From Escherichia coli (GTDB taxonomy: Bacteria; Pseudomonadota; Gammaproteobacteria; Enterobacterales; Enterobacteriaceae), in NCBI RefSeq assembly GCF_044324785.1, contig NZ_CP172127.1: a stretch of DNA of 64,000 nt. The stretch is one strand, 5' to 3'. A program made the position numbers and the translations under genes. Below, piece after piece: positions 7,811-9,106 of the stretch (the first letter of the stretch is position 1; each line of letters opens with the position of its first letter). The notes under the pieces are model-generated. The model was not told the origin of the DNA. It ran no database searches and worked only from the letters and a program-made list of their open reading frames with translations.

Positions 7811-9106
7811 ATGGCTATCAAATCACCTCCCGGACTTATTCCTTTATCACACTTATCGGGTGAGGAACTCCTGGCCCACCTGCGCTTTAACCGGGTTACC
7901 GATGAAAAAGGACGTTATCTGCCTTTTGATGAGTTGCAGTACCGCATCAAAAAAGGAGAAAACGTCGAAGTGGCGTGGACGCTTACCCGTCTGGCGCGCA
8001 ACGCGGCGATCCAACGAATCAATTATTGCAATGAAGCGGGTGAACAGGCCGGATTCAACATTACCCCGGTGATTGCAGAAGCGTGCGAGCTTGTCGACAA
8101 ACGTGCTACCGCGCTGGCGCTGAAAGATCAGACTGAACGGTTACGCGGGGCCGGAGCCGAGTTAAGTCAGTTACGCCTGGAAGAGCCAATCACCAGCTCC
8201 CAACTGGAAGGTGCGAATACCACAACGCTGGTGGCGAGAAAAATGCTGGAAACAGGGCGGTCGCCACGCACTGAAGACGAGCATATGATTGCGGGAAATG
8301 CCCGGCTGATGGCGGAAATTCCGCACTTACTCGCAGAGCCGCTAACACCTGCGCTTATTCGCCAGTTACATGCCATTGGTATGGGTGGAATCAATGACGC
8401 GAAATATCGTCCGGGAGAATTTCGTGAAACAGATGATGTTGTGATCGCCGACTATGACGGCAATATTGTGCACCAACCGCCCGCTGCGGCATTGTTGCCG
8501 GAACGGCTGGAAAAAGTTTGCCAGTGGCTAAACAGCCATGAAGGGTATATTCATCCGTTGGTCCGTGCCTGCATTCTGCATTTTATGCTGGCCCATGAAC
8601 ATCCGTTTCGGGATGGCAACGGGCGCACCAGTCGGGCGCTGTTTTACTGGTATATGCTGAAATCGGGCTACGATGTTTTTAAATATATTTCTATCAGCCG
8701 TTTGCTTCATGCTGCGCCAGTCAAATATGCTGCCAGCTACCAGTACACTGAATCAGACGGTATGGATCTGACTTATTTCCTTGATTATCAGGCGGGTGTC
8801 ATTAAACGCGCTCTGCATAACTGGCAGCAGCATATTGATGAAATTACACAACGAAGCGCAAAACTCGATAGTGTGCTGTTTAGCTCTGGTGTGCTTAAAC
8901 GCCTGAATCCGCGCCAGGTAACGCTCCTGAATGTGATGCTCGCTAATCTGGGGAAAGAGTACACAGTTGCTGAAATTAGCACGGGCCTGGGCGTCTCTGA
9001 TAATACGGCTCGAGCAGATTTACGGACGATTGTTAAAGAAGGATTTGCGCAAGAGAAGAAAATTAATGACCAGCAAGCAGTGTACGTCGCGCATTATCCG
9101 TTGTAA
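7811..9106 (+). CDS. Fic-domain protein (putative AMP-transferase) with intramolecular inhibitory motif and C-terminal winged-HTH
   Basis: 431-aa ORF. Canonical Fic motif [12 protein letters not shown] at residues 264-275 (nt ~8600-8635). Inhibitory-helix motif S-x-x-x-E-G (SSQLEG, residues 129-134) lies N-terminal to it, the class II arrangement. The C-terminal ~60 aa look like a winged HTH. Confidence 0.85.

Follow-up and report, generated by a model that had tools for sequence, protein, structure and literature searches.

A solitary class II Fic–winged-helix gene between yiaY and aldB of Escherichia, probably autorepressed and lost by deletion from K-12-type strains

SoFic of Shewanella oneidensis (SO_4266/MloA; PDB 3EQX and 3ZCN) is a Fic protein with a domain of the winged helix-turn-helix (wHTH) type and represents a single-gene defence family in PADLOC and DefenseFinder. 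Its dimer binds the first 100 base pairs (bp) upstream of its own start codon (bioRxiv 10.64898/2026.07.09.737422). The same Fic-wHTH architecture (InterPro IPR048770) is encoded by the gene described here, called fic, which lies between yiaY and aldB in a 64,000-nucleotide (nt) stretch of Escherichia coli contig NZ_CP172127.1 (assembly GCF_044324785.1); this whole stretch is referred to as the window. The gene is already annotated, its product being named “Fic family protein” in databases (WP_000985736.1/WP_000985735 in E. coli), and its architecture and autoregulatory logic are of the known SoFic/CccR-like kind. The locus is likely to be a self-contained one-gene module, in which an autorepressing, self-inhibited class II Fic AMP-transferase is fused to its own repressor domain, and which was lost by deletion in K-12-type strains.

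CccR of Yersinia pseudotuberculosis (YPK_0951) is a class II Fic protein (inhibitory motif SARIEG) with a C-terminal HTH domain and is secreted as a toxin through a type VI secretion system (T6SS) (PMC9755527). Footprinting, electrophoretic mobility shift assays, and lacZ fusions established that CccR, as a dimer, binds an inverted repeat close to the -35 and -10 elements and so represses its own promoter. Its operator is one AGATAATCAT-N26-ATGATAATCT site, and the protein AMPylates FtsZ on Thr8 (PMC9755527). By analogy, CccR is the experimentally proven version of the mechanism inferred for fic. EcSofic of E. coli H397, also a class II Fic-wHTH protein, shows toxicity on expression, is dimer-dependent, and is discussed as an anti-phage defence protein; it is paired with AS1, a downstream antitoxin of 47 amino acids (aa) (PMC12249575). 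CbFic2 of Coxiella burnetii (CBU_0822; PDB 8CIL) is a Fic-HTH protein in which DNA binding and DNA-induced dimerization switch the balance between AMPylase and deAMPylase activities (PMC10628234). It is a eukaryote-directed effector acting on histone H3. Human FICD (HYPE) is a class II Fic protein and the paradigm of the Glu-dependent AMPylase/deAMPylase switch.

The fic product has 431 aa and a mass of 48.4 kDa, and shares 15–21% identity with solved structures. CbFic2 is its top Foldseek match (E = 1e-11; 19–21% structural-alignment identity), and FICD provides its best PDB sequence matches (E ~3e-12), with the EG(A/N) inhibitory motif and the Fic catalytic motif of the two proteins aligned. 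Unlike the fic product, FICD is an endoplasmic reticulum protein of eukaryotes that contains TPR repeats, lacks a wHTH domain, and targets BiP. Structural-alignment identity to SoFic is ~15–19%. SoFic, CccR, and CbFic2 all lack an extra N-terminal module of ~60–85 aa that is present in the fic product. CccR further differs in its length (380 aa), its T6SS effector locus, which has no counterpart at fic, and its single N26 site, where fic has two TATCTCAA-N12-TTGAGATA sites. EcSofic has a mass of ~41 kDa with Glu70 and His194 at the positions of Glu133 and His264, whereas fic has no conserved small open reading frame (ORF) alongside. The N-terminal module, as seen in the sequence, marks the fic product as a subfamily distinct from the tested SoFic proteins.

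On sequence evidence, the product of the locus is an intact class II Fic-wHTH enzyme, and its gene is under purifying selection. A Pfam search places the Fic domain (PF02661) at residues 177–281 (E = 1.7e-19), and the catalytic motif agrees with HxFx(D/E)GNGRxxR on a Fic fold. The motif SSQLEG lies N-terminal to the Fic core on the same polypeptide, agrees with the (S/T)xxxE(G/N) pattern of class II, and aligns with the EGN inhibitory motif of FICD. Catalytic and inhibitory motifs are invariant across 28 homologues (41–97% identity), and ITSSQLEGA and HPFxDGNGR are (nearly) invariant also across 20 distant homologues, archaeal ones included. The C-terminal part carries the wHTH domain; Pfam gives only weak HTH_DeoR/IclR-type matches there, at residues 377–414, and no Fic_N match. 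The ratio of nonsynonymous to synonymous substitution (dN/dS) of fic is 0.08 between the window and two E. coli alleles and 0.04 between those two alleles. An earlier note on this DNA had proposed an intact Fic active site, a built-in class II inhibitory motif, and a C-terminal winged HTH domain in the 431-aa ORF. All three are borne out, and the fold is not degenerate: the catalytic motif is intact and the inhibitory helix is predicted.

The N-terminal module (aa 1 to ~85) is confidently predicted to form helices and a β-hairpin (structure model with a predicted local distance difference test score of 88) and has no match in Pfam or the PDB. Residues D31, Y36, R45, W56, and R63 are invariant in the alignment of homologues. 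Position 30 of the SoFic profile aligns to aa 96 of the fic product, and the SoFic dimer helix spans L28–L50. By analogy, the helices that follow the module (aa 86–111) may mediate dimerization of the fic product, and a dimer is also expected because the operators described below are palindromic.

Two 30-nt direct repeats, 50 bp apart, lie just upstream of fic, and each is also an inverted repeat. These putative operators, O1 and O2 (Table 1), read AACTATCTCAAAA-cttgcttt-TTTTGAGATAGTT (7725-7758) and CTATCTCAA-tattgcgctttt-TTGAGATAA (7777-7806), respectively. A search of the 64-kb window for their core TATCTCAA-N12-TTGAGATA, tolerant of two mismatches, finds 2 sites, both perfect, where 0.01 would be expected. 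Orthologues in unrelated contexts, namely Pseudescherichia, a Salmonella integrative and conjugative element (ICE), Pantoea, a Klebsiella phage-like region, and Rahnella, are preceded by the same twin palindromes with unchanged spacing to the ATG. In 18 of 18 loci, among them Klebsiella (48% protein identity) and Xenorhabdus (43% protein identity), where the O2 copy is degenerate, O2 starts 32 to 36 nt ahead of the ATG. O1 is located at -82 to -84 in 11 of the 18 loci, two Escherichia alleles among them, and at -94 in one more. The information content over the 30 sites in these loci is 1.89 bits per arm position, compared with 0.50 bits in the central spacer.

An exact-match metagenome scan for the 18-base motif CTATCTCAA-N12-TTGAGATAG returned 108 stretches. 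Among the 80 loci listed, 40 have the motif ~5 or ~55 nt (range -1 to 60) upstream of the start codon of a fic homologue, and at least 12 non-E. coli lineages are found among these 40. The other 40 comprise ~14 unrelated sequences, with ~24 of the loci being one sequence inside a 648-codon ORF of a gut organism. No Fic gene, cryptic ones included, was found near these ~14 occurrences, a number that could arise by chance when so large a collection is scanned for an 18-base motif.

Individual loci from the survey show further variants of the pattern. In the upstream region of L148, O1 at -82 carries a symmetric double change, TATCGCAA...TTGCGATA in place of TATCTCAA...TTGAGATA; concerted change of both half-sites is the pattern expected of a dimer-recognized palindrome. 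The perfect 30-nt operator pattern also occurs in AT-rich intergenic DNA with no Fic gene nearby (L121 2936-2965/L153 108-137, L092 432-461, and L128 8884-8913), in one instance on a contig of 58–61% G+C. These Fic-free copies may be chance palindromes or sites of an unrelated regulator.

The twin operators enclose a putative promoter. All twin-operator loci have the hexamer TTGAGA, from the right arm of O1, and TATACT, TATAAC, or TATACA 17–18 nt downstream, abutting O2; the form in Salmonella, Pantoea, and other genera is TATACT. On the basis of this positional conservation, the two hexamers are candidates for the -35 and -10 elements of fic. The predicted transcription start (~7783–7785) falls inside the left arm of O2, and the right arm of O2 contains a Shine-Dalgarno-like GAGA element (7800–7803), 8–11 nt before the ATG. 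O1 would thus cover the -35 hexamer and O2 the start site, and therefore a protein bound at both would occlude both.

The product of fic is itself the candidate for that protein: it contains a wHTH domain, and no other gene travels with the palindromes. Nearly all homologues at 30–40% identity have upstream palindromes of their own, often in two copies, with different arms and with 6-mer cores mostly 10–12 nt apart and a few wider. Perfect inverted repeats of at least 8 nt, with a spacer of 8–16 nt and no more than 130 nt upstream, were present at 60% of 20 distant loci versus 3.8% of 343 control windows taken from the same loci. The half-sites of the fic palindrome are 20 bp apart, centre to centre, which fits their placement on one DNA face and recognition by a large dimer with peripheral DNA-binding domains.

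The sequence of the palindrome arms tracks the residue immediately before the TAR triplet, which is invariant where the predicted recognition helix starts. Asn at this position (SDNTAR, SYNTAS, AANTAR, SENTAR) accompanies (T/C/A)(A/C)TCTCAA or AACTCAA in Enterobacterales, two Pseudomonas, and a metagenome-assembled genome of Campylobacterota. Gln or Glu (YQTAR, YETAR) accompanies TACTAA at eight loci from Planctomycetota, Gemmatimonadota, Gammaproteobacteria, and two archaea. Ala (YATAR) is found with TATCAA and Asp (YDTAR) with TACCAA, at two loci each, and His with TTATAAC and Phe with GCGAGAT are single cases. Such covariation is predicted if the palindrome is read directly by the protein's own wHTH domain, and is not predicted for an RNA hairpin or a host factor. 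Because the twin operators are conserved and covary with the recognition helix, fic is most likely autorepressed, as has been shown for CccR and suggested for SoFic. The CccR-type arrangement, an inverted-repeat operator over the protein's own promoter that is recognized by its C-terminal HTH domain, is found at fic as a computational prediction.

K-12 derivatives (DH1, TG1, and O16:H48) have a yiaY-aldB spacer of 164 bp that lacks fic, as the earlier note had stated. The spacer reads ...GCCGCTTTTTCAACTATCTC|TGTAACCCTTGCCCG..., and its junction CAACTATCTC|TGTAACCC is a simple 7733|9102 join. Its left part equals window 7682-7733 save for a few substitutions and ends in AACTATCTC, which makes up 9 of the 13 nt of the left arm of O1, counted from the start of the arm. 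Its right part begins at window 9102, at the second base of the terminal Leu codon of fic, and continues into the TAA stop codon; subtraction of the intervening segment (Table 1) from the window reproduces K-12 exactly. The K-12 state is a deletion scar rather than an empty insertion site, because the junction keeps half of O1, a sequence that is cassette-borne in other genera with unrelated flanks. By this sequence evidence, fic is an ancestral gene that was lost from most E. coli.

Across 5426 complete E. coli genomes, the entire 1.5-kb yiaY-aldB interval with fic is present in 1572 (~29%), and the contiguous K-12-type junction in 3354. Most of the remainder carry further rearrangements at this spot; ~430 genomes lack both the intact fic interval and a contiguous scar. 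In the 1572 genomes, fic is always chromosomal and always at the yiaY-aldB locus; carriers include O157:H7 and the phylogroup-F neonatal-meningitis strain CE10. The earlier description of a strain-variable single-gene insertion therefore holds for the strain variability and gives way to a 1368-bp deletion in K-12 for the insertion.

Other events at this spot were also observed. E. coli STO_Bone2 has an IS200C element inside the scar, about CAAC|TATCTC (L200 2894-3352), and in E. coli CP131_Sichuan (L201 3638-4335) an IS1A element is followed directly by glyS, with aldB and its neighbours deleted. Microhomology-mediated deletion between two TATC tetramers was considered as the origin of the scar and rejected: its predicted product differs from the K-12 junction.

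A mechanism can be proposed for the module on the precedents of CccR (PMC9755527), SoFic (bioRxiv 10.64898/2026.07.09.737422), and CbFic2 (PMC10628234). The Fic protein would dimerize through the helix that precedes the inhibitory helix, like SoFic, EcSofic, and CccR, and the two wHTH domains of the dimer would touch the two arms of the 28-bp palindrome. Bound at O1, over the -35 element, and at O2, over the transcription start and leader, the dimer would repress its own promoter and keep the protein low. Glu133 would hold the Fic domain in a Glu-in state that is incompetent for AMPylation and possibly deAMPylating. Some cue would lift this inhibition, upon which an essential cellular protein would be AMPylated and growth arrested, plausibly in a manner of the abortive-infection type. 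The N-terminal module might act as a sensor or bind the target.

Several points weigh against this interpretation. The placement of Glu133 in the active site is derived from alignment. The fic product scores 39.7 bits against the NCBIfam SoFic equivalog NF046030, whose cut-off is 550, and is not an equivalog; EF-Tu, the SoFic target, is therefore not transferable to it. A sigma-70 consensus scan called no promoter upstream of fic, because the -7 T is missing from the Escherichia -10 hexamer TATACA. The covariation was judged by eye from a small table of ~6 specificity classes. A literature search by protein accessions and O157 locus tags returned nothing relevant on experiments with the fic product.

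A tentative alternative concerns the purpose of fic and is compatible with its autoregulation. In this proposal, fic serves in anti-phage defence as a single-gene system of the SoFic type, which would cause abortive infection by AMPylating a host or phage protein. The PADLOC SoFic model matches aa 96–427 of the product (E = 1.3e-41; profile positions 30–351 of 361), and defence-annotation pipelines would probably label the gene SoFic. PHROG family phrog_5978 also matches (2e-53). EcSofic is toxic and has been described as a defence protein (PMC12249575), and fic is strain-variable in E. coli.

The neighbourhoods of fic relatives point both ways. In Salmonella, fic stands by an autotransporter gene and AcaB/DUF3158 genes in an ICE; in Klebsiella, by a DUF927 primase gene and phage-like genes; and in Pantoea, by DUF421 and GST genes, two genes away from an AbiEi gene, so that these relatives occupy mobile or defence-rich contexts. 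The orthologues in Pseudescherichia (VF530 and NIT/ANTAR genes, with the upstream gene divergent), Xenorhabdus (a peptidase gene and PRiA4_ORF3), and Rahnella (fumarase and membrane transporter genes) have other neighbours. The genes on both sides thus differ in all six genera, and the mobile unit is therefore fic with ~90 bp of upstream DNA. In Escherichia, however, fic lies between core metabolic genes and outside any defence island. The subfamily also departs from the tested SoFic and EcSofic proteins in its N-terminal module, in its Glu133 and His264 (70 and 194), and in having no AS1-like downstream gene, and no full-length relative was found among 50,697 phage records, which held shorter Fic-wHTH proteins only. 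The purpose of fic could instead be endogenous growth control.

A broader and more speculative proposal is that Fic-wHTH proteins with a long N terminus form a distinct, ancient bacterial and archaeal subfamily of single-polypeptide toxin-plus-repressor modules. Operator occupancy would act together with the N-terminal module to control the AMPylase/deAMPylase switch, in the manner of DNA binding in CbFic2. If so, release from DNA, for example in the course of phage-induced DNA breakdown or a burst of replication, would relieve repression and at the same time switch the enzyme on. A simple recognition code would also hold in the family, with one residue before TAR setting the half-site.

It is improbable that the palindromes are RNA or terminator hairpins, with O1 acting as a second yiaY terminator and O2 as a leader hairpin that masks the Shine-Dalgarno element, or that they are sites of a host regulator. 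A scan flagged O1 as terminator-like, with a 13-bp stem and then a T-rich tail, and O1 as RNA has a folding energy of -14.1 kcal/mol (z = -6.0); the Shine-Dalgarno-like GAGA is overlapped by the right arm of O2. The O2 hairpin is weak, however (-8.3 kcal/mol, z = -1.5), Pantoea O2 has two non-compensating changes, and the two sites share one sequence though O1 lies upstream of the putative -10. The divergent upstream gene of Pseudescherichia cannot be terminated by O1, and Rfam has no match in 7500-9400. The arm sequence itself is conserved beyond pairing across loci with 43–97% protein identity and covaries with a residue of the recognition helix, and a host regulator is further disfavoured in that no other regulator gene co-travels with the fic module.

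The fic product is very unlikely to be a CccR-like effector and transcription factor that is delivered by T6SS and AMPylates the FtsZ of competing bacteria: no T6SS or effector-immunity genes lie beside fic in the window or in the six other-genus contexts, structural-alignment identity to 7xux is 18–20%, the operator spacer is N12 here and N26 in CccR, and homologues occur in archaea and in phyla without T6SS. An enzymatically silent transcription factor, or a decaying remnant nearing loss, would accord with the scar in 3354 genomes and with the truncated and chimeric variants described below, but is hardly credible given that the catalytic and inhibitory residues are all invariant, dN/dS is low, and every fic-positive genome listed among the 1572 annotates the full-length ORF as an intact Fic family protein.

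These results extend the CccR/SoFic paradigm to a widespread enterobacterial gene and do not overturn current understanding. What is new here is the polarity of the K-12 deletion, the precise twin operators and promoter model, the covariation across phyla, and the N-terminal module. About 29% of complete E. coli genomes carry this intact, purifying-selected Fic enzyme, predicted to AMPylate, and it has escaped standard genetics because K-12 is without it. Defence finders would count fic as a SoFic system though its subfamily differs from the tested SoFic proteins. The twin operators provide an immediately testable regulatory model, with the natural K-12 deletion as a clean null background, and the joint variation of operator and recognition helix, seen across phyla, is a compact setting in which to follow the evolution of wHTH specificity.

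Table 1. Positions in the window of fic, its predicted domains and motifs, and the elements upstream of it.
Feature	Position	Strand or length	Remarks
yiaY intrinsic terminator	7697-7717	+	G+C-rich hairpin, then CTTTTTC; terminator scan; sequence common to K-12
Operator O1 (putative)	7726-7755		core TATCTCAA-N12-TTGAGATA at 7728-7755; perfect 13-nt arms within 7725-7758
Segment absent from K-12-type E. coli	7734-9101	1368 bp	starts within O1, ends 2 nt short of the fic stop codon
Putative -35 hexamer TTGAGA	7748-7753	+	inside the right arm of O1; read from sequence
Putative -10 hexamer TATACA	7771-7776	+	abuts O2; positional conservation
Operator O2 (putative)	7776-7805		core TATCTCAA-N12-TTGAGATA at 7778-7805
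fic coding sequence	7811-9106	+	431 codons, ATG start; class II Fic-wHTH
N-terminal module, subfamily-specific	7811-8065	+	aa 1 to ~85; conserved D31, G34, R35, Y36, R45, W56, R63
Helices, aa 86-111	8066-8143	+	positional counterpart of the SoFic N-terminal dimerization helix; secondary structure of the model
Inhibitory motif SSQLEG, aa 129-134 (Glu133)	8195-8212	+	end of predicted helix 114-132
Fic catalytic motif, aa 264-275 (catalytic His264)	8600-8635	+	Pfam, alignment, and sequence read-out
C-terminal feature with recognition helix	8894-9091	+	helix begins S396-DNTAR, nt 8996-9013

The neighbours of fic are yiaY (6530-7681) upstream and aldB (ATG at 9214) downstream, with selB, yiaW, and yiaV among the further genes. 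The spacers around fic are 129 bp upstream and 107 bp downstream, and the yiaY terminator shields fic from upstream transcription. Neither spacer contains a conserved small ORF that could encode an AS1-like antitoxin, and the downstream genes are different in every genus, so that a toxin-antitoxin pair with an adjacent small antitoxin gene is not found here; the earlier note had likewise seen no antitoxin-sized partner. Two small ORFs were considered as antitoxin genes and rejected, one of 50 aa (8967-9119, + strand) and one of 58 aa (9020-9196, - strand); both overlap fic and have no counterpart in other contexts. The NCBIfam VbhT and Doc matches of the fic product are marginal. Within the aldB leader, a perfect 11-bp inverted repeat (TGACTGGCGAA-gat-TTCGCCAGTCA, window 9149-9173) is common to K-12, and no T-run follows. 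Unrelated to fic, this repeat may serve in aldB regulation.

The fic product belongs to a 90%-identity cluster of 1771 member sequences. Full-length homologues at 43–76% identity are present in Pseudescherichia, Salmonella, Pantoea, Phytobacter, Photorhabdus, Kosakonia, Rahnella, Klebsiella, Pectobacterium, and Xenorhabdus, and homologues at ~40% identity in Pseudomonas and Endozoicomonas. At 30–40% identity, the matches listed include Campylobacterota, Verrucomicrobiota, Planctomycetota, Gemmatimonadota, Chlamydiota, and Bacteroidota, as well as two methanogenic archaea. These distant homologues were obtained from a peptide scan of genome contigs, and close orthologues were fetched individually. 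Full-length relatives are also carried on plasmids of Aeromonas, Vibrio, Klebsiella, and Rahnella. The G+C content of fic (50.6%) matches that of the window (51.2%).

The window itself probably represents an Escherichia lineage beyond the sampled E. coli diversity that still has fic at the same locus, because its selB-yiaY segment (4495-7681) is at most 97.9% identical to any of the 5426 genomes and its yiaY has a synonymous divergence (dS) of 0.2 from an E. coli strain. The fic interval is at most 97.6% identical to any of these genomes, and the dS of fic is lower than that of yiaY, at 0.09.

Truncated and chimeric forms of fic occur elsewhere. Several of the predicted proteins P0100 (503 aa), P0007 (438 aa), and P0080 (376 aa) are chimeric. 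P0100 joins the first ~168 residues of Fic, at 99% identity, to an aldehyde-dehydrogenase Pfam domain, which suggests an independent deletion that fused fic to aldB, and P0007 and P0080 join Fic fragments to unrelated Pfam domains. On a metagenome contig (L159 5146-5485), perfect twin operators stand before a fic homologue (39% identity) of which just the first ~80 codons are present, abutting a convergent gene for a 705-aa UvrD-like helicase; this looks like a truncated fic remnant that retained its operators. In Xenorhabdus khoisanae (L090 4706-5716), the fic homologue is followed ~850 bp downstream, in opposite orientation, by a second and shorter Fic-HTH gene (336 aa), and two different Fic-wHTH subfamilies thus stand side by side, adjoining mutS.

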